IMG/VR virus record: IMGVR_UViG_2617271049_000002
DNA length: 9,583 bases
Source of the DNA: a virus
Lineage: Duplodnaviria > Heunggongvirae > Uroviricota > Caudoviricetes
Direction: 5' to 3' (one strand)
A model generated the notes under the pieces. It saw only the letters and a program-made list of their open reading frames with translations, was not told where the DNA came from and made no database searches. Shown one piece after another: positions 3,280 to 9,583 of this stretch (positions are counted from its first letter, which is position 1; each line of letters opens with the position of its first letter). The translations under genes were made by a program, and so were the position numbers.

Positions 3280-3798
3280 TCACAGGCCGATATTGCGGCG
3301 GTGTTGCTCCAGCCGGTCGACGCCGTTCACCTTCTCAATCATGTTGATGGTGTCAATTTCGACCAGCTCCTTACCGTCCATCGTCAGCCGGAAATAAGTG
3401 CAGACCACGGAGATTTTCGACTCGGTATCTTCTCCCTGTTTCCCCTCGCCGGTGTCGATTTCTTTCTGACGTCCACGCATGACCACCTCGACGGCCACCG
3501 TTTCGCCGGTATCGTCGCGCTGGTAAGAGCCTGCAAAACGAATCGGTACGGCATCCACACCGGTTGCGGCGTAAAGTTCCCAGATAACCGAATCCGGGAA
3601 GCCCCCGAGCGACCACTCCATTGACAGCGCATCGTCATCAAGGCCGAGGTCTACCGGTGCGCTGCCGTTCATCCCCGCACCGCGATAGTTTTCGAGCTTA
3701 CGGGTCAGTTTTGGCAGCGTGACGGACTTTGCAACGCCCTGATAGCTGTAGCCGTTCAGAAAGACGTTCATTAACTTGAGTTTGCGCGGCATTGCCAT
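3280..3798 (-). CDS. FII: Tail tube protein, P2 gpFII-like (172 aa).
   Basis: Complete ORF with a GGAG Shine-Dalgarno immediately after the FI stop. Size and position after the sheath gene fit P2 FII. Confidence 0.9.
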   Translation of the reverse strand: MAMPRKLKLMNVFLNGYSYQGVAKSVTLPKLTRKLENYRGAGMNGSAPVDLGLDDDALSMEWSLGGFPDSVIWELYAATGVDAVPIRFAGSYQRDDTGETVAVEVVMRGRQKEIDTGEGKQGEDTESKISVVCTYFRLTMDGKELVEIDTINMIEKVNGVDRLEQHRRNIGL

Positions 3799-3810: not shown

Positions 3811-5001
3811 TTAATTGCTGTTAACCGAGGTGACCAGATTTGCCAGATATTTATCAGTAATACGCTGGCGCAGGGTCAGGTTTTCGAGAGGAGGCACCGG
3901 GGTATAGTCATAGTCGATATACAGTTTTCCGGCCTTGAGGGTTTCCGCATCGTTGGATTCTTCGCTGAACCAGCAGGTCGCATCCACGATATAGCCGTTT
4001 GTTTTCAGCTCACGGAATTTGGCATTGATGCCGTCAACGATGTCGCGAATCAGCGTTGCGGTGATGGGCTTATCCACCGCCCACATGTGCGCCTCAGCCA
4101 TCGTGTCGGCCAGCACCTGCGCGGTGCGGGTGTAGTTTTCAAAGAGGAACAGTGGGTCATCAGAGCAGGTACGGTTACCCCAGAAGCGGAAACCGTCACG
4201 GCGAATCAGCGTTGTGACACCTGACTCGTTCAACAGGTCAGCATCGGTGCCGGACTCCTGCAAATCCCAGAATACAGAGGCGCTGATGCCGGTAACACCG
4301 TTTACCCCGACATTGGACAGCGTTTTATGCCAGCCCTGCTCCTGGTCGATTTTAGCGCGCAGACCCAGCGCACGGGCGGTGGCATACGCGGTGGCGGTGG
4401 TGCTGCTGACCGTATCCCATGCGAGGAAATCCGGCCAGATGACCATCAGCTCACGCTGGCTGAAATTCTGGCGGTAGGCTTTCACCTCGGAAATAGTCTT
4501 ACAGCCCCATGCGCTGATATATCCGAAAGCGCGCAGCTTCTGACAGACGGATGCCAGTGCAACAGCCACCTCTTTGGTATCCAGTCCCGGCACACCGAGA
4601 ATACGCGGTTTAACACCGGTTACCGACTCCGCCGCCAGCAGGGCTTTCAGTCCGGTGTACTGACCGTTTTCGTCGGTGGTGCCGATGATATTGGAAACGG
4701 TCTGCGCGAGTTTCGTTTCTTCGTCATCGCCGGTGCCGTCTTCCACGCGCACGACAACGGTGACCGGTTTTGACTGGTCGGCGATGGCCTGCAACGATGC
4801 CGCCAGCGTGCCTTTTTTACCGGCCTTTGCAATTGCGCTCTGCACATTGGTAATCAGCACAGGTTTATTGAGGGGGAAGGTTTCCGCATCCGCATCGCTG
4901 GCCGTGCAGACCATGCCGACAATGGCCGTGGATACGGTGGAAATGACGCGGGTGCCGTCGTTAATCTCCAGCACCTGCACGCCGTGATGATAGTCGCTCA
5001 T
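3811..5001 (-). CDS. FI: Contractile tail sheath protein, P2 gpFI-like (396 aa).
   Basis: Complete ORF MSDYHHGVQVLEINDGTRVISTV...YLANLVTSVNSN, which I recognise as near-identical to P2 FI. GGAG lies 9 nt upstream of the ATG. Confidence 0.92.
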   Translation of the reverse strand: MSDYHHGVQVLEINDGTRVISTVSTAIVGMVCTASDADAETFPLNKPVLITNVQSAIAKAGKKGTLAASLQAIADQSKPVTVVVRVEDGTGDDEETKLAQTVSNIIGTTDENGQYTGLKALLAAESVTGVKPRILGVPGLDTKEVAVALASVCQKLRAFGYISAWGCKTISEVKAYRQNFSQRELMVIWPDFLAWDTVSSTTATAYATARALGLRAKIDQEQGWHKTLSNVGVNGVTGISASVFWDLQESGTDADLLNESGVTTLIRRDGFRFWGNRTCSDDPLFLFENYTRTAQVLADTMAEAHMWAVDKPITATLIRDIVDGINAKFRELKTNGYIVDATCWFSEESNDAETLKAGKLYIDYDYTPVPPLENLTLRQRITDKYLANLVTSVNSN

Positions 5002-5093
5002 CCGTTTAACTCCGTGGTTAATGGGTGCAACTATTTTCTGTTGTGCAGAGCATGAGACGCTATTTGACCTGGCTGGTCAGGGGATGAAACAAC

Positions 5094-5123
5094 AGATAAA
5101 GAAAATGCGGGCAATTCGCCCGC
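5094..5123 (-). terminator. Rho-independent terminator for minus-strand transcripts leaving the cargo cassette.
   Basis: Minus-strand sequence GCGGGC-GAATT-GCCCGC followed by ATTTTCTTTATCTGTT: a 6-bp GC stem, 5-nt loop and U-rich tail. It lies about 155 nt downstream of the cargo gene B stop and about 95 nt upstream of the FI start. Confidence 0.6.
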
Positions 5124-5184
5124 CTGTCCTGATTTGTACTCACTCATTTTCCGCCTGACAATTTACATAGCCCAAATGCTATCA

Positions 5185-5219
5185 AATCTGACAGTCTGCT
5201 TTGAGCGAGGAGCGGAAGT
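5185..5219. repeat. Left copy of a 35-bp imperfect inverted repeat that brackets the AT-rich cargo (AATCTGACAGTC-TGCTTTGAGCG-AGGAGCGGAAGT).
   Basis: It matches the reverse complement of 7458-7492 at 31 of 35 positions: two perfect 12-mers separated by an 11-mer with 7/11 identity. It sits at the GC/AT composition boundary. Confidence 0.8.
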
Positions 5220-5276
5220 TCGCTTTGCTCCCGTGTTAATAGTGGGTATTAATCAATCGGGAGCATAACCATAGAA

Positions 5277-6434
5277 TTAGCTGTTTGATTCAGCATCAGC
5301 AACTTTTCTATATTTAGTAAGCAATTCTACTTTACGTAATTCAATCTCACGCATAATGTTTGATTGAATATCATGTATTTTAGAGGGCGACGCACCTTTA
5401 ACCTTTATATTTATAAAGGTAATGCACAATTCAGGATTAACAGGGGTTTTTCTTCCATATTCACTAAACTCGTATGCAACCTTACATTCACCTGAATAGG
5501 ATTCATAGCTAATTGTGTAACTTGCGACAACCTTAGTAACACGTACATACGGGTGTATGTGTTTCCATTTGATAGATATTATATTCTCTAGATTTCCTTT
5601 GACTCTATACTGGTCAATATCTTTTTCGAGAAAATTAGTCACAGCATCTGATTGTTTTTCGTAACCAGTAGAATGATCCGGATTAAAATGAACATCATCT
5701 ATTTTTTGATGGTAGAATAAGTATCCAATATGAAGGGATGCTAATTCATTAAGGAATTTTACTCTGTTTTCATTTTCAAAATCATCCATCAGAACTCTAC
5801 CTCGATGAGGCGAATGTTCAATTATATTATTTCTTTCCAAATGCTCCTCTATCAAGGTTATGACATTTTCAGCTATTTCTTTAGTTTCCGGAGATGTGTG
5901 ATTTAGTTTTACATTCATTAAAAGCTGGGAGTTACCAGTGATGCCATTAACGTCTTTCTTGATTTCCACAGATCCTTTAAAGAACTTCTCAGTTATATAC
6001 CAATCATCTAGAATATCTGTCTTGCAAATTTCGAACTCCATTATTACGGAATTATTACTTCTACCATCTAGAGATGTAAAATCGCTAAAATCTGATATCT
6101 CATAATTAATGTAACCATTTTTTGTGATTTTACTAACATCTACAAACCCACTAACTTCACCAAGCAAATCAACATCTTGCTTAAGATCAAAATTCCTGAA
6201 ATTTACTTTATCTAATTTTTCCTTTGTTTTAATACTGCTTAGTAAATCATAAGATTCATCAGGGCTTAGTAAAGAGGTGATCAAGTTTGGAACTGTGCCT
6301 GATTTTTCAGACACTCCGCAAAAAAGCCCTCTTTCTTTAAGTAGATTATTGATCATTGTAGAGCTACAGTTCTGCTGGCTCACAAGATTTTTCAGTTCAT
6401 CTCCGGAGGGGATGAAATCAATATCATTTTTCAT
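5277..6434 (-). CDS. Cargo gene B: hypothetical protein of 386 aa (MKNDIDFIPSGDELKNL...RKVADAESNS) with no motif I recognise; second gene of the two-gene cassette.
   Basis: Long ORF in about 30% GC DNA, where stop codons are frequent, so the ORF is very unlikely to be chance. I place the start at the ATG at 6434, which has an AGGAG Shine-Dalgarno (complement of 6443-6447) 8 nt upstream, rather than the TTG at 6470 used by the ORF track. The start overlaps the stop of gene A by 11 nt (ATGAAAAATGA), implying translational coupling. No Walker A motif is visible. Confidence 0.8.
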   Translation of the reverse strand: MKNDIDFIPSGDELKNLVSQQNCSSTMINNLLKERGLFCGVSEKSGTVPNLITSLLSPDESYDLLSSIKTKEKLDKVNFRNFDLKQDVDLLGEVSGFVDVSKITKNGYINYEISDFSDFTSLDGRSNNSVIMEFEICKTDILDDWYITEKFFKGSVEIKKDVNGITGNSQLLMNVKLNHTSPETKEIAENVITLIEEHLERNNIIEHSPHRGRVLMDDFENENRVKFLNELASLHIGYLFYHQKIDDVHFNPDHSTGYEKQSDAVTNFLEKDIDQYRVKGNLENIISIKWKHIHPYVRVTKVVASYTISYESYSGECKVAYEFSEYGRKTPVNPELCITFINIKVKGASPSKIHDIQSNIMREIELRKVELLTKYRKVADAESNS

Positions 6435-7350
6435 CAGAAATGCTCCTGAAGGTGCTATTATAAGAATCAACGATTAATGTAATATCTCCAACGACATCCT
6501 CAGAGCCATCTTCAAAATTTTGCGCCATTTTGACTTCATCAACTGAAGGGGAGTCTGTGAGTTTATTATATTTATTGAAATAAATCTCATAATGATTTGC
6601 GAAATCGGAACAAAGCTTTCTAGCTAATTTATACACCAACCCTAGTGATTCTTTACTGTAATTAAAATCGCAAAGTAATATAAATTTTCGCCCATTATCA
6701 TCAGGCACAGAAATGGGAATTATTGGAGAGGTAATGTATTCAACAGGCATTATTTTAGAATGTCTTGTTGAAGATGAAACATTTAAGGTAGTGTTAAGAC
6801 AGAAAAAAGATATTTCACCATGCTTTTTCTTGATAAAGCTTATCGAGTTGTATAAAAATTTTGCTCTTGCGTTATCAACGAGATGTATGGCGTTGAACTT
6901 GAGGGTAGAATCGATTCTATGATTGATGATTTCACCTTTAATATTATCATTTGAATCGCTTTCATCATTATTTAAATAAAACAAAACCCCAATATCTTCT
7001 TTTCTTGAACTACCTGGAAATTGTCTTGTTATGGTTCTTTTAAACTGGGATTTTGAATAACATTCAATGGTGTGTGCCAAGTCTTTGAAATGTGAGCGAA
7101 AAGTAGTTTTGACTTTATCGTAAGGTACTGATGAATACTTTGCAGAAACAACAACGCTTACTAATGATTGTTTTTGAAGCATAGAGTTGTAGACATACAA
7201 AGCATCTATTCCATGTGTCTTTTTAGCATGTTCTCCCACGCAGCAATCTAATTGCTTGTTACTACATAGGTTTTTCCATCCAAAGAGTTTCAGAAAGTCA
7301 TTGACTATCTCTTCGCCCACCTCGCCGACATATTTTGAGAACTCGCCCAT
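6424..7350 (-). CDS. Cargo gene A: hypothetical protein of 308 aa (MGEFSKYVGEVGEEIV...RSISDEK); first gene of the cassette. The N-terminal ~75 aa may be a nuclease-like module, which is speculative.
   Basis: Long ORF in AT-rich DNA with ATG at 7350. The N-terminal region shows a spacing of acidic helix (GEVGEEIV), then HGID on a hydrophobic stretch, then VVVSAK, which loosely resembles an E...D...(E/Q/S)xK nuclease signature. This is recognition by eye only. Confidence 0.8.
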   Translation of the reverse strand: MGEFSKYVGEVGEEIVNDFLKLFGWKNLCSNKQLDCCVGEHAKKTHGIDALYVYNSMLQKQSLVSVVVSAKYSSVPYDKVKTTFRSHFKDLAHTIECYSKSQFKRTITRQFPGSSRKEDIGVLFYLNNDESDSNDNIKGEIINHRIDSTLKFNAIHLVDNARAKFLYNSISFIKKKHGEISFFCLNTTLNVSSSTRHSKIMPVEYITSPIIPISVPDDNGRKFILLCDFNYSKESLGLVYKLARKLCSDFANHYEIYFNKYNKLTDSPSVDEVKMAQNFEDGSEDVVGDITLIVDSYNSTFRSISDEK

Positions 7351-7385
7351 TACCTAAACCGCCGTCTATTAAATTATAATTCTTT

Positions 7386-7414
7386 ATAGTATTAATCTTA
7401 TTCACATTTATCAA
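7386..7414 (-). promoter_or_regulatory. Candidate sigma-70 promoter for the cargo operon: TTGATA (-35), 17-nt spacer, TACTAT (-10).
   Basis: Hexamers read on the minus strand about 35-65 nt upstream of the gene A ATG. A perfect TATAAT also lies closer to the ATG. The region is AT-rich, so chance matches are likely. Confidence 0.25.
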
Positions 7415-7457
7415 CATTAGGAGTAAGCAAGACGAATTAGTAGTGAGTCATCAATCG

Positions 7458-7492
7458 ACTTCCGCTCCTGGCACAGAGCGGACTGTCAGATT
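7458..7492. repeat. Right copy of the 35-bp imperfect inverted repeat bracketing the cargo (plus strand ACTTCCGCTCCTGGCACAGAGCGGACTGTCAGATT).
   Basis: Reverse complement matches 5185-5219 at 31/35. It sits at the other GC/AT boundary, 108 bp upstream of gene A. Confidence 0.8.
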
Positions 7493-7510
7493 AGGCTTTA
7501 CTCTGTGCCA
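7469..7510 (-). promoter_or_regulatory. Stem-loop downstream of G: 10-bp perfect stem (TGGCACAGAG / CTCTGTGCCA) with a 22-nt loop; function unknown.
   Basis: Perfect inverted 10-mers at 7469-7478 and 7501-7510, starting 22 nt after the G stop. One arm lies inside the right inverted-repeat copy. There is no U-tract after it on the minus strand, so it is not a canonical intrinsic terminator. Confidence 0.35.
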
Positions 7511-7532
7511 TAGATATGTAAGCTAATACAAC

Positions 7533-8060
7533 TTATTGCGGCATTTCCGGCCATTCAGGATTTGCAGGATCCACACGACTGACCAGAACGCTGTAGCGTT
7601 CCCATGATTCCAGTCGGCTACGCTCCTCATCTGTTGCCATGTTCAGTCTGACCGCGCGCTCCAGCGGCAAAATCACGGATTCAGCATCTGCAAGAAGTCT
7701 GGCTTTCTGAATTTCTGCCTGCTGCTGTAATTCCTCTGCCGTATAAATGCGTTTAATCACTTTGCCGTCCTTAAACATCCAGTTCCCTGAAATGTCCGCC
7801 CGTCGGTTAGCAGTAATATCCGCCACTTCAACAACACTTAATCCATCCGGTCTGATAGCTGTCACATCCTTTTCCACATAGTGGATGATATTATCTTTGT
7901 CGTACGCTATTTTTATCGTGTCATCAGCAAAATACTTTTGTTCTTCGTACCAGTTCTTACCATCTTCTGAAAAAAACCAGACAACATCAAAGTCCTTTGT
8001 CAATTGATATTGTTCAACCGTTTTTGGATTACCCGCCGTAATATTTTTTAAATGCTGCAT
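7533..8060 (-). CDS. G: Tail fibre assembly protein, P2 gpG-like (175 aa).
   Basis: Complete [23 protein letters not shown]...[13 protein letters not shown], which matches my recollection of P2 gpG. Its ATG lies 3 nt after the H stop (TAA-TTT-ATG). Confidence 0.9.
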
Positions 8061-8063
8061 AAA

Positions 8064-9583
8064 TTATACCTGCGCCACGTTATACCATGTCCCGTTAATG
8101 TATTTCTGCACCGGTCTGTAATATACGCCACCAATGTTATCGGCAGAGTTTGAGCCGGTATCCTGAACAATAATGCCGGTATATACGCAACCTGACGGAG
8201 CCTGATGCGTCCATGTAGTACCATTATTTGCTGGTTTATATGTAGATGCACCGCCCAGCCGCATGTCTCTCACATAACGTGAATCTGATTCAGCTTTGGT
8301 GTATGCACCAACATCTCCCGCTGAGGGTTTATGAGCAGTTGTATATAGTTGCGCCCATCCAGACCAGTTAGCATCTGTGGTATCTCGTCGGGAGCGAATA
8401 TATGCCGGAGCATGAGCACCGCTGGTTCCACTCCAGCCAATAAGTAACTCACCCTCTCCTACTGCGGTTACGCCAGTGAGATGAAGCACATTACCATAGG
8501 CTGTTGGGTAGCCATTGTTGTATGCCTCATACATCTGAATACCTGGTGTCCCCTTTACGCTCCCACCTAATGCAGTAACACGGTTTCTGGATACCAGTGT
8601 ATTAATATTTATATCAGCAGAGCCATCAAATCTGACACCATTAATATTTCTTGCGTTCGCTAACTTCGTTGCTGTTGCAGCATTTCCCGAAAGGCTGGAA
8701 ATAAATGGATGTGAGCAGTAATAACCGCGCCCATTTTTAAAATCCAGAATAGCCTGTGCGTTCGTGCTTTCTGTAGCAGGATTAGTTGCCCCCCACTTAT
8801 ATGTCGTTTGACCGACGACATAATCCTCTGTCGGAACAATAACCGTTAGCCCTTCCTCTGCAAGAATTTGCACAGGGAAAGCTCTGGCTTCAACATAAAA
8901 AACACTACATACATCATCATCTTTCAGGCTTGTAACAATGGAATGGATTGAACGCTCATTAGTCTGATACGTCCAGAAATAACCTGCCGCATATGAACCA
9001 CGATCAGTCCAGCCTCCGGGCATAACCATGCCATTAAACTCGCAGTTATTCATTACATAATCGCTGTTATAACAACCAGTGGAAATAACGACGCGGGATG
9101 CCATTTCTCCTGAAAGGCTGGCAGCACGGCGAAAGATAACGGGATACCACTTCCCGGCAACGACATTTGCAGGGGCTGCAAACGAATACTTTCGCATTCC
9201 CTTTTTCTTATCCACTTCACCTTTGCTGTAAACATTAATGTTACTCAGGAAGCGTCCTTTATCAGGAATATCCGCACCGTTCTGATCTTTCTGAAGACGT
9301 TTTTCAGCATTGTCATAGGCAGACTTCACCGCTTTTGGTGTTGCGGCCTGCGTTTCAGAATCACTGTTGGTGGCGCTACTGAGCTGGACAAGGCCTTTCC
9401 GCGCGGTGGTGGCATCCTGTGCAGTGTATTTCCCGTTAGCAAGGTCATACGCTGTCTTAACCGCCTTTGGCGTTGCCGCAAGCGTTTCAGAATCGCTGTT
9501 GGTGACGCTACTGAGCTGGACAAGACCTTTTCGCGCTGTGGTGGCATCCTGTGCAGTGTATTTCCCGTTAGCAAGGTCATACG
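8064..9583 (-). CDS. H: Tail fibre protein, P2 gpH-like; 3' portion only, the 5' end lies beyond the window.
   Basis: The frame is open from the window edge to the stop at 8064-8066. The ORF-track start at 9329 is an internal GTG. The upstream in-frame translation reads ...AATPKAVKTAYDLANGKYTAQDATTARKGLVQLSSATNSDSETQAATPKAVKSAYDNAEKRL..., the repeat motif I recall from P2 gpH. The C-terminus ...YRPVQKYINGTWYNVAQV resembles the P2 H C-terminus. Confidence 0.88.
   Translation of the reverse strand, partial: YDLANGKYTAQDATTARKGLVQLSSVTNSDSETLAATPKAVKTAYDLANGKYTAQDATTARKGLVQLSSATNSDSETQAATPKAVKSAYDNAEKRLQKDQNGADIPDKGRFLSNINVYSKGEVDKKKGMRKYSFAAPANVVAGKWYPVIFRRAASLSGEMASRVVISTGCYNSDYVMNNCEFNGMVMPGGWTDRGSYAAGYFWTYQTNERSIHSIVTSLKDDDVCSVFYVEARAFPVQILAEEGLTVIVPTEDYVVGQTTYKWGATNPATESTNAQAILDFKNGRGYYCSHPFISSLSGNAATATKLANARNINGVRFDGSADININTLVSRNRVTALGGSVKGTPGIQMYEAYNNGYPTAYGNVLHLTGVTAVGEGELLIGWSGTSGAHAPAYIRSRRDTTDANWSGWAQLYTTAHKPSAGDVGAYTKAESDSRYVRDMRLGGASTYKPANNGTTWTHQAPSGCVYTGIIVQDTGSNSADNIGGVYYRPVQKYINGTWYNVAQV
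9320..9583 (-). repeat. Two tandem 132-bp (44-codon) direct repeats inside the tail fibre gene, cut by the window edge.
   Basis: Region 9452-9583 is near-identical to 9320-9451 at an offset of 132 bp. They encode the AATPKAVK(T/S)AYDLANGKYTAQDATTARKGLVQLSSATNSDSET(L/Q) unit. Confidence 0.85.

Follow-up and report, generated by a model that had tools for sequence, protein, structure and literature searches.

Mobile insertion cassettes (MICs), such as MIC231 of Bacillus cereus, are IS-derived, non-autonomous elements that carry passenger genes. In integrons, the gene cassettes of which are associated with attC, and in the pdif modules of Acinetobacter plasmids, interchangeable cassettes lie between short conserved sites. 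For the Z/fun variable locus of phage P2, a 2004 study by Nilsson et al. (Mol Biol Evol 21:1-13) reportedly names site-specific recombination in its title, and for that reason the conserved borders of Z/fun may already have been noted there. The study is cited for this variable locus by PMC9122126 and by bioRxiv 10.1101/2024.10.15.618418.

Here we analyse a locus in the window, by which we mean the whole stretch of viral DNA under study (9,583 nt); its insertion site is this same Z/fun locus of P2. A first-pass annotation had drawn attention to two 35-nt imperfect inverted repeats, hereafter the arms, on either side of an AT-rich cargo. We consider it likely that a non-autonomous transposable element with cargo extends from 5135 to 7530, and that the 35-mers are nt 51-85 of its two ~85-nt ends. 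Elements of this kind resemble MICs in having IS-type inverted ends around passenger genes and no transposase, with mobilisation in trans presumed; they differ from MICs in that a single frame is occupied by any of dozens of cargos, with divergence at conserved sub-terminal arms, and in their location at defence hotspots of phages and islands. With insertion sequences of the IS481 family they have in common the terminal 27 nt (TGTATTAGCTCAGACTTGATCTGACAG), TGT...ACA termini and a 7-bp target duplication; unlike these insertion sequences, the cargo elements encode no transposase, have ~85-nt ends with L- and R-specific arms, carry unrelated genes and occur in low copy number. Integrons and pdif modules likewise have exchangeable cassettes with a short conserved site on each side, and in pdif modules these sites are inverted too. 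In contrast to integron attC sites, however, there is neither an IntI integrase nor GTTRRRY (the boundaries read ...GGAAGT/cargo and AATCTGACAGTC), the arms of the window do not make up a single folded site but have the cargo between them, and the frame has the hallmarks of a transposon; unlike pdif sites, the arms have no similarity to dif that is evident by eye. We found no account of these repeats in the literature searched (Nilsson 2004 and Odegrip 2006 lay outside its scope), and in the Z/fun literature searched, with Nilsson et al. 2004 again outside, the hotspot is described as bounded by conserved genes, and inverted repeats, duplications and an IS relative go unmentioned.

The inverted repeat and the element ends

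A repeat search of the window found the arms to be complementary at 31 of 35 positions (89%), whereas the next-longest inverted repeats are only 19-22 nt long (77-89%). In 12 shuffles of the window the best 35-nt inverted match reached 24-27 positions, which confirms the claim of the first-pass annotation that the repeat is beyond chance. Direct reading bears out its description of the arms as two 12-mers that match perfectly, separated by a central 11-mer that matches at 7 of 11 positions and exists in an R-type and an L-type version (Table 1). Between the arms, GC content falls from ~0.55 to ~0.32.

The similarity had also been said to stop abruptly on both sides. This is correct inward, where cargo-specific sequence lies directly past the arms, but not outward, where weaker inverted similarity reaches TGTA termini at 5135 (50 nt from the left arm) and 7530 (38 nt from the right arm). 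The shorter distance on the right is due to a 12-nt deletion in the L-type copy. A profile of related ends (nhmmer) aligns to 5154-5221 and 7525-7456, and the R-type terminus at 5135 was placed by alignment with 51 FI-side ends. The placement of the arms exactly on the boundary between backbone and cargo must be revised: a comparison with phages that have the empty site gives 5135-7530 as the inserted DNA, and the arms therefore lie inside that boundary.

All ends of the family begin with TGTATTAGCTCAGAYTTGA, located exactly 50 nt outside the 12-mer. Conservation along the end is highest in the outer 12-mer (1.62-1.69 bits per position), in which ATCTGACAG of the terminal repeat recurs, and is higher there than in the terminal repeat itself; past nt 85, it collapses to 0.13-0.17 bits. 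One L-type and one R-type centre are present in every element (63 distinct cargos compared), and the arms of the window are close to the family consensus, made up of the outer 12-mer AATCTGACAGTC, an end-specific centre (L CGCTCTGTGCC, R TGCTTTGAGCG) and the inner ARRAGCGGACRT. Counted on the sequence, the R-type end of the window equals the IS terminal repeat at 16 of 27 positions; the L-type end is identical to it over the first 10 nt, after which the 12-nt deletion follows. The P2 frame combines decayed terminal repeats with arms that are still at consensus. Within the L-type end, a local hairpin sequence (GGCACAGAG/CTCTGTGCC) lies around the 12-mer. It is plausible that the arms would act as paired protein-binding sites, as had been proposed, with some protein presumably recognising the 12-mer.

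The cargo is a two-gene GAPS4 anti-phage system, as both proteins score above their cut-offs and the genes are adjacent and co-oriented. Neither cargo gene has a match in Pfam or PADLOC-2023. The 31 ORFs of the window comprise tail genes plus those for GapS4a and GapS4b, and no integrase is among them.

Table 1. Features of the element and its flanks (positions in the window)
Feature	Position	Strand	Remarks
Tail sheath gene FI	3811-5001	-	backbone; downstream flank in phage orientation
Intrinsic terminator	5107-5123	-	GCGGGCGAATTGCCCGC + ATTTTCTTTA
FI-side copy of 7-bp target duplication	5128-5134	.	CCTGATT (reverse complement AATCAGG), decayed
R-type end	5135-5219	+ (read inward)	85 nt: decayed terminal repeat TGTACTCACTCATTTTCCGCCTGACAA 5135-5161, spacer, left arm
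Left arm	5185-5219	+	outer 12-mer AATCTGACAGTC 5185-5196; R-type centre TGCTTTGAGCG 5197-5207; inner 12-mer AGGAGCGGAAGT 5208-5219
AT-rich cargo cassette	5220-7457	-	two genes; GC ~0.32
GapS4b	5277-6470	-	NCBIfam NF047934, 323.9 bits (cut-off 300)
GapS4a	6424-7350	-	NCBIfam NF047933, 291.3 bits (cut-off 270)
Promoter-like site	7414-7386	-	consensus match only
Right arm	7458-7492	-	reading inward: AATCTGACAGTC, L-type centre CGCTCTGTGCC, AGGAGCGGAAGT
L-type end	7458-7530	-	73 nt; terminus TGTATTAGCT...; 12-nt deletion vs common P2 form TGTATGAGCTCTGGTGTGAGCTTACAT
G-side copy of 7-bp target duplication	7531-7537	.	ACTTATT (reverse complement AATAAGT); contains G stop codon 7533-7535
Tail fibre assembly gene G	7533-8060	-	backbone; upstream flank in phage orientation

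The insertion site in P2-like phages

The element separates the stop codon of tail gene G from the terminator of the G operon, a position that is the classical P2 Z/fun hotspot. At the empty-site loci (L015, L021, L057, L069 and L072) the G stop codon is followed at once by the terminator, and no arm is present; in the window, this terminator has been displaced by 2.4 kb by the insertion. The empty site reads CCGC-AATAAAT-ACAGGCGGGC, with a single copy of the 7-mer, and the occupied site reads ...AATAAGT-element-AATCAGG-ACAGGCGGGC, in exact register with it; the two duplication copies of the window match at 5 of 7 positions. The comparison with empty sites that had been suggested earlier is thereby answered, in that cargo-less phages carry no copy of the repeat rather than one contiguous palindrome. 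As for target-site duplications just outside the repeats, a 7-bp duplication is indeed present, though decayed (5/7), but it is placed 50 nt outside the arm on one side and 38 nt outside it on the side with the deletion.

The frame was found in 45 of 79 P2-like loci. Across 80 IMG/VR P2-like loci, about 35 different cargos have these flanks and this decayed duplication in common, and the gap from G to FI ranges from 1144 to 4404 nt; the question whether the repeats flank different cargo at the same site in P2-like phages can thus be answered in the affirmative. In these loci the L-type end adjoins G and the R-type end adjoins FI, and in the reference P2 these two ends enclose fun(Z). We propose that the element would have entered an ancestral phage, from which the E. 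coli P2-like phages descend, by transposing into AATAAAT, a 7-mer that overlaps the stop codon of G, and that this insertion would have separated G from its terminator. Given that the terminal repeats and the duplication are decayed and that one end is partly deleted, the copy in the window is probably no longer mobile as a whole.

An IS481-family relative and the same ends elsewhere

An autonomous relative is a 1.2-kb IS with an IS481-family transposase (NF033577, 288.7 bits, cut-off 224), found in Pectobacterium fontis, Xenorhabdus, Alteromonas, Catenovulum and E. coli and annotated as 'IS481 family transposase' (e.g. WP_107236064.1). The terminal repeat of the P. fontis IS is identical to the first 27 nt of an element end from an E. 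coli chromosomal island (L312; 27/27), and nt 1-27 of the cargo-element family consensus equal the IS repeat. Complete IS copies are flanked by 7-bp duplications in five cases of five, perfect in four. The full-length IS is present in 77 of 5426 E. coli genomes (1.4%) and is rare, whereas frames are common; in a single case, E. coli BMH-17-0027, an element end and the full IS occur in one strain.

In a tblastn search of all loci, the IS transposase matched IS copies only and was found in none of the cargo elements, nor did Pfam identify a transposase in the long elements examined, including L193, L293, L248 and L215; the very long end pairs are probably mis-paired ends in lambdoid prophages near Q antiterminator genes. 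Nucleotides 28-85 of the cargo-element ends have 24-29 positions identical to IS ends, as against about 30 in shuffles. As the ends past nt 29 resemble IS ends no more than shuffled sequence does, the arms have no counterpart in the IS. A descent of the arms from a sub-terminal inverted copy in the IS (CTGTCAGATTA...) was considered and rejected, nt 28-85 being no closer to either IS end than are shuffles. The proposed link between element and IS is drawn from 27 nt and the equal length of the duplications. With its terminal 27 nt shared by an IS that makes 7-bp duplications, the element would likely be mobilised by an IS481-family transposase supplied in trans. The view of the first-pass annotation that the 35-mers could be terminal inverted repeats of a transposase-less mobile cassette holds in part: the element is without transposase, has inverted ends and target duplications and matches an IS481-family IS over its terminal 27 nt, but the 35-mers are sub-terminal and make up the inner third of the ~85-nt ends.

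In other places the same ends enclose different cargo, for instance CBASS, OLD-like ATPases and DarT, and the 7-bp duplications there are in many cases perfect. We found pairs of ends at the other P2 hotspot, downstream of gpA, in a P2-like phage (L165), in an unrelated phage with a CBASS cargo, where they adjoin a tail-fibre gene (L093), in E. coli chromosomal islands (L312, L313) and on Klebsiella plasmids, and the cargo elements carry 0.6-6 kb of unrelated genes. Direct repeats abutting TGT...ACA were compared at 20 distinct sites: they match at 7/7 positions in six and at 6/7 in three, while none of 80 offset controls has a direct repeat of at least 6/7. At the other 11 sites the match is 5/7 or lower, and some of these are probably mis-paired or nested ends. 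An alternative description, with a 5-bp duplication and one extra terminal base, was superseded by the 7-bp duplication that abuts TGT...ACA. In E. coli, the R-type end of non-P2 elements has a median of one location per genome. No match to the L165 and L093 regions was found among GenBank phages by megablast, and for two sites outside P2 a search with exact patterns yielded no empty allele.

Short-type matches in Alteromonadales and other taxa were considered as ~78-nt MITEs, and on longer sequence turned out to be ends of the IS or copies of it that have decayed; among them, L354 is a deletion derivative of ~115 nt.

Cargo exchange and the role of the arms

Alleles of the element were compared within and between frames. 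At one site, the outer ends of L254 are identical to those of L260, and on either side the two sequences part within the inner 12-mer; at the site with the duplication CTATATC we found elements of three lengths (1035, 1111 and 1916 nt). Between a P2 frame (L060) and another frame (L260), a 1966-nt cassette is 99% identical, and the homology starts and ends within the 12-mers. Because alleles at one site have common outer ends and diverge inside the arms, cargo has been swapped there, although the conservation of the arms across the family means that divergence 'inside the arms' is not placeable to the nucleotide. The earlier suggestion that the repeats are recombination sites for cassette exchange gains support from this comparison, both from the roughly 35 cargos in one frame and from the alleles that diverge inside the arms. 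Most likely, the present-day role of the arms is to provide short shared sequences at which cassettes would pass between frames, whether by homologous or by site-specific recombination. The cassettes so exchanged would be GAPS4 here and Fun(Z), OLD-like ATPases, DarT or CBASS elsewhere, and the frames would be those of different phages and islands.

Ordinary homologous recombination would also give divergence inside the arms. We regard it as rather unlikely that the arms are dedicated site-specific recombination sites, integron-like or pdif-like, where a recombinase, or a transposase acting on internal sites, cuts at the junction of 12-mer and centre. Conservation of the 12-mer in excess of that of the terminal repeat would suit such sites, as would P2-frame arms that stay at consensus despite decayed terminal repeats, and the presence of one L-type plus one R-type centre in every element. 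Moreover, cassette homology between frames has both its limits placed symmetrically inside the 12-mers, also in a recipient frame that carries unrelated 9-mers instead of AATCTGACA; the shared sequence then amounts to about 26 nt at most, a short length for RecA-type recombination. However, no recombinase gene is found consistently beside the elements, which occur near tail genes, gpA or diverse integrases and on plasmids; a near-identical cassette in two different frames is known from L060/L260 only; direct reading shows the integron core GTTRRRY to be absent from the boundaries; and homologous crossovers in the conserved 35-mer explain the divergence points equally well.

A broader proposal, which we also find doubtful, is that the arms are the sites of an unrecognised anti-phage cassette-exchange system. 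The IS481-type frames in phages, satellites, islands and plasmids of Enterobacterales would then be docking sites, and a specific protein would move the cassettes: either the transposase, acting on internal ATCTGACAG sites, or another recombinase, with cassettes bounded by the 12-mer core, the L/R centre and ARRAGCGGACRT. If true, this would amount to an integron-like platform for defence genes and would account for the very fast turnover at P2-type hotspots.

Papers on P2/P4 defence hotspots give the mechanism of the very high gene exchange there as unknown. Rousset et al. 2022 (PMC9122126) offer a speculation on cos ends, and a 2026 NAR study (PMC13586616) describes transposable elements as almost non-existent at P2/P4 hotspots and notes that homologous recombination would need flanking homology. 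Our preferred reading of the arms, as shared sequences within a transposon frame, would answer this question concretely and testably for one classical hotspot at least: Z/fun would be the inside of an old IS481-type transposon frame. Portable ~85-nt ends around the defence cassettes of unrelated phages, islands and plasmids would supply the short shared sequences for cargo swaps. The ends may also serve as a sequence tag for unannotated defence cargo, that is, for whatever sits between an L-type and an R-type end; they would delimit cassettes precisely for cloning, and they open simple experiments on the seeding of hotspots by transposition and their refreshing by exchange at the arms.

Other roles for the arms fare less well. 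It is very unlikely that they are transcription signals (terminators, insulators or promoters) which shield late gene expression from foreign cargo. In the L-type end the stop codon of G is indeed followed at once by a hairpin of 9-10 bp (GGCACAGAGC/GCTCTGTGCC), paired in 89% of cells across 53 diverse ends and with many one-sided changes that are G-U compatible on the inward-reading strand; but this hairpin has no U-tract, its covariation score is reached by 141 of 500 shuffles, and the R-type end has no hairpin at all. Furthermore, the sole terminator-like match in an arm (5195-5216, + strand) is weak and antisense to all genes here, promoter-like matches are not enriched (9 against 10.4 expected), and the same ends sit in many unrelated transcriptional contexts. 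A terminator or promoter role of the arms is unsupported, and the true terminator lies outside the element.

Still less credible is a pairing of the arms in a read-through transcript or in single-stranded DNA, such that a long-range stem would loop out the cargo, for example as a signal for RNase III processing or insulation. The arms of the window are complementary at 31/35 positions, and transcription from the late V operon has to run through the whole element before it arrives at the displaced terminator. Nevertheless, among the 63 distinct cargos the inner 12-mer matches its own partner no better than those of other elements (4.35 versus 4.33 mismatches; permutation P = 0.58), and the same is true of the outer 12-mer (P = 0.16). 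Changes in one 12-mer are uncompensated in the partner, the L-type and R-type centres are systematically unlike, Rfam 15 has no match at E <= 1 within 4900-7800, and local folds are unremarkable (z from -0.3 to -2.0). The lack of covariation between the arms disfavours long-range pairing, which we therefore reject.

Finally, the idea that the repeat is conserved P2 backbone beside the hotspot, with accidental inverted symmetry and no link to transposition, fits the conservation of the flanks in all occupied P2-like loci but is almost certainly wrong, being refuted by empty-site phages that have neither flank, by the same ends outside P2 with perfect 7-bp duplications and by a terminus identical to an IS terminal repeat.

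The inner 12-mer (GCGGACA) agrees with the P2 Int arm-site consensus tgTGGaCa (PMC3448106) at 6 of 8 positions, a weak match that differs at the conserved T, and the elements occur with many integrases other than P2 Int.

The inverted repeat and its frame

The window comes from a P2-like phage and comprises its late region in reverse orientation, with two AT-rich ORFs between G and FI, and this gene order indicates that the repeat brackets the classical Z/fun variable locus. The imperfect inverted repeat reported in the first-pass annotation was borne out by a repeat search of the window (arms 5185-5219 and 7458-7492, 31/35 match); on direct reading there is no mismatch in either 12-mer, AATCTGACAGTC or AGGAGCGGAAGT, and the central 11-mer agrees at 7 of 11 positions. 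With all diagonals scanned, the window's top 35-nt inverted match scores 31, against 24-27 for shuffles (n = 12). GC content is about 0.32 between the arms, down from about 0.55 outside. Within T, 20 consecutive N (masked or unknown bases) occupy 883-902, and a 132-nt unit is tandemly duplicated at 88% identity at the window's right-hand end (9306-9569; ORF upstream of the tail-fibre gene H region).

Genes, element and target duplications in the window
Feature	Position	Strand	Remark
U	12-491	minus	
T (tape-measure)	506-2803	minus	
FII	3280-3798	minus	
FI	3811-5001	minus	
Duplication copy	5128-5134		
Element	5135-7530		
GapS4b	5277-6470	minus	AT-rich ORF; above NCBIfam cut-off
GapS4a	6424-7350	minus	AT-rich ORF; above NCBIfam cut-off
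Duplication copy	7531-7537		contains G stop codon
G	7533-8060	minus	
H	from 8064	minus	

Comparison with 80 P2-like loci from IMG/VR, retrieved via the FI protein (numbers such as L015 denote loci collected for comparison), showed that different cargos, about 35 of them, lie within common flanks, with G-to-FI distances of 1144-4404 nt. Next to G the flank runs TAA-gt-TGTATGAGCTCTGGTGTGAGCTTACATATCTATGGCACAGAGTAAAGCCT-AATCTGACAGTC-CGCTCTGTGCC-ArrAGCGGAcrT before the cargo; on the FI side the arrangement is mirrored, with the centre TGCTTTGAGCG and the outer part ...TGATAGCGTTTGGGCTATGTAAATTGTCAGTCGGAAAATGAGTGAGTACA. In the cargo-less phages L015, L021, L057, L069 and L072 the G stop codon is directly followed by CAGGCGGGCnnATTGCCCGCCTTTTCTTT, the terminator, and by the FI promoter region. 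Neither arm is present; a single contiguous palindrome in such phages would have counted against the reading in the first-pass annotation. Both arms belong to a longer conserved frame that only occupied sites have. Among 79 usable loci the frame is found in 45; about eight have nothing at the site, and in about 20 a DNA invertase gene takes the place of the frame. The invertase loci (L003, L004, L008, L009, L023-L025 and others; site some 150 nt upstream of FI) represent the P2 site in a third state: the gene ends about 95 nt upstream of FI, replacing the frame, and the G terminator is missing. The reference P2 genome (NC_001895) has fun(Z) enclosed by the P2 frame, where its record lists neither a repeat nor a mobile element.

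Termini, target duplications and an IS481-family relative

The ends share the terminus 5'-TGTATTAGCTCAGAYTTGAnCTGACA, with the 12-mer beginning exactly 50 nt inside in all contexts, and a profile built from 96 ends matched 312 sequences at 488 ends, which mostly come as inverted pairs, two to a locus. Immediately outside the TGT...ACA termini are 7-bp direct repeats, of which CTATATC, TTTCATG, AATAATT, CATAAAT, GATTAAG, ATTAATG and GCTAACT are perfect. Over 20 distinct sites, taken from prophage predictions and probably including some mis-paired or nested ends, the duplication is 7/7 at six and 6/7 at three, and 0 of 80 offset controls reached 6. Empty alleles come from the P2 site only, where CCGC-AATAAAT-ACAGGCGGGC holds a single 7-mer and the duplication copies are AATAAGT and AATCAGG; one 7-mer was thus duplicated there in exact register. 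The first-pass annotation had proposed a search for duplications just outside the repeats: they do flank the element but do not lie beside the arms, which make up nt 51-85 of each end.

At 7510-7530 in the window, the G-side end lacks 12 nt of outer sequence (GAGCTCTGGTGT) that most P2 frames possess; the variant recurs in L005, L002, L013 and L001, and the deletion appears to sit between two GAGCT direct repeats. A 616-nt element occupying one site in many contigs (L198, L200, L205, L210 and about 20 more loci) has a perfect AATAAAC duplication, and one of its ends begins GGTTTCGGCTTA, not TGTATTAGCTCA.

IS481-family insertion sequences (ISs) are well known, as are non-autonomous IS derivatives carrying passenger genes. 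The terminus pattern also matches elements that are alike over the first 28-31 nt only, several of which are complete 1.2-kb ISs encoding a 346-aa DDE transposase (domains HTH_29, rve and rve_3; IS481 family by NCBIfam, 288.7 bits, cut-off 224). One copy is an entire 1203-nt contig of Pectobacterium fontis M022 (L335), in which contigs L318, L369, L382 and L386 end exactly at the IS terminus, which indicates a multi-copy, probably active element in M022. Further copies occur in Alteromonas, Xenorhabdus, Catenovulum and metagenome-assembled genomes, and a full-length E. coli copy, about 83% identical in nucleotide sequence to the P. fontis IS, is present in 77 of 5426 genomes, on chromosomes and plasmids.

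The IS terminal repeat, TGTATTAGCTCAGACTTGATCTGACAG, is the first 27 nt of the cargo-element ends (27/27 at the L312 end), and five complete IS copies are flanked by 7-bp duplications, perfect in four cases. No transposase of this or any other kind was detected in the cargo elements. The matching terminal repeat, the 7-bp duplication and the absent transposase give the cargo elements the look of non-autonomous relatives, resembling the known class of derivatives with passenger genes. We infer that they could be moved in trans by an IS481-type transposase. Beyond nt 29 their ends have no significant similarity to IS ends, and the arms belong to the cargo elements rather than to the IS. Within the arm 12-mer, ATCTGACAG of the terminal repeat recurs as a direct copy, 32 nt farther inward.

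Scanning IMG/VR with AATCTGACAGTCNGCT recovered the arm with quite different outer flanks. In L165 an end pair directly downstream of the gpA replication gene, the other P2-type hotspot, encloses a DUF2971 gene, and a Gabija-like pair (GajB/GajA; UvrD-like helicase and ATPase, 8510-11700) adjoins it outside the frame, so that this hotspot has framed and unframed cargo side by side. In L093, a non-P2 phage, the pair follows the tail-fibre gene and holds a CBASS operon (SMODS and 4TM effector). The R-type end occurs beside integrases in E. coli chromosomal islands (tRNA-Gly island, L312; leuX island of O157:H7, L313), and one-genome-per-species data contain full-length ends in many Enterobacterales genera and Klebsiella plasmids. 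Each of 63 distinct elements with both arms typed has one L-type centre, (C/A)GCTCTGTGCC, and one R-type centre, TGCTTTGAGCG, except L275, where both scored R-like. A 240-nt pair in L048 (4318-4557), a third degenerate arm in L066 (531-1190) and, in L415 (5564-6239), a pair of ends on the same strand at a distance of 600 nt suggest nested, tandem or internally deleted elements.

Role of the arms

The arms contain no convincing terminator or promoter and have no match in Rfam. Their inner-12-mer consensus AGCGGACAT (window 5208-5219, 7458-7469; some variants AGTGGACAT) has a weak resemblance, probably due to chance, to tgTGGaCa, which PMC3448106 quotes as the arm-site consensus of the P2 integrase. 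Pairing of the two arms was rejected: over 63 distinct cargos, mismatches to the own partner and to other partners average 4.35 vs 4.33 in the inner 12-mer (P = 0.58; outer 12-mer, P = 0.16), and single arm changes are uncompensated in the partner. Inner-12-mer mismatches span 0 to 11 across elements, the perfect match in the window being one extreme. In the L-type end a hairpin, GGCACAGAGC/GCTCTGTGCC, surrounds the 12-mer; this hairpin is conserved in sequence, shows no significant covariation and explains why the central 11-mer differs between arms. Each arm stays near a consensus, which fits protein recognition or use as shared homology.

The P2-frame terminal repeats are decayed (16/27 and 19/27 match to the IS repeat, by our own count), as is the duplication, and one decayed set accompanies all P2-frame cargos; this identical decay indicates a single old insertion, not repeated ones, with cargo replaced inside the frame. 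The P2-frame arms are at the family consensus and the outer 50 nt have drifted. Across the family the 12-mer is the most conserved end segment (1.62-1.69 bits per position), with a collapse to 0.13-0.17 bits just past nt 85.

L060 (P2 frame) and L260 (a different frame), the single pair with a near-identical cassette in two frames, have in common a 1966-nt cassette at 99% identity, the homology beginning ...AATCTGACA|GTCCGCT and stopping ...GCrGAC(T)|GTCAGATT. L254 (7951-9810) and L260 (7993-10086) occupy one site with identical outer ends and hold two different cassettes; on each side their sequences part inside the inner 12-mer. Their frame is itself divergent, the 12-mers being replaced by the unrelated 9-mers GGCGTGGTTGTC and AACCTTCTAGTC with only GTC kept, and has normal centres and inner 12-mers. 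At another site, with the duplication CTATATC, elements of three sizes occur (1035, 1111 and 1916 nt). The constant frame, the divergence within the arms and the shared cassette therefore mark the arms as the zone of cassette exchange between frames. Exchange may proceed either by homologous recombination on about 35 bp or by a site-specific reaction; here, as for all mechanistic steps, we infer beyond the sequence anatomy.

Earlier descriptions and cargo

Nilsson et al. 2004, whose title speaks of site-specific recombination at these loci, may already have noted the conserved borders of the P2 hotspot. Described here is a putative transposon frame whose sub-terminal arms would act as cargo-swap points, spread over phage and island defence hotspots. 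The exchange mechanism at P2 hotspots is an open question in PMC9122126, PMC13586616, bioRxiv 10.1101/2024.10.15.618418 and PMC13100340, none of which mentions inverted repeats, duplications or an IS relative there.

The window cargo (5277-7350, minus strand) is a complete two-gene GAPS4 anti-phage system; its ORFs as listed overlap by 47 nt, and neither product has a match in Pfam or PADLOC-2023. Other P2 frames hold an OLD-like ATPase-Toprim protein (699 bits, PADLOC), AriA/PtuA-like ATPases and DarT. Frames at other sites hold CBASS, a DUF2971 protein, an HNH protein and a histidine phosphatase, and one 5.6-kb element elsewhere has FadL/MscS/alkyl-sulfatase genes, so that the cargo is mostly, not solely, defence-like.
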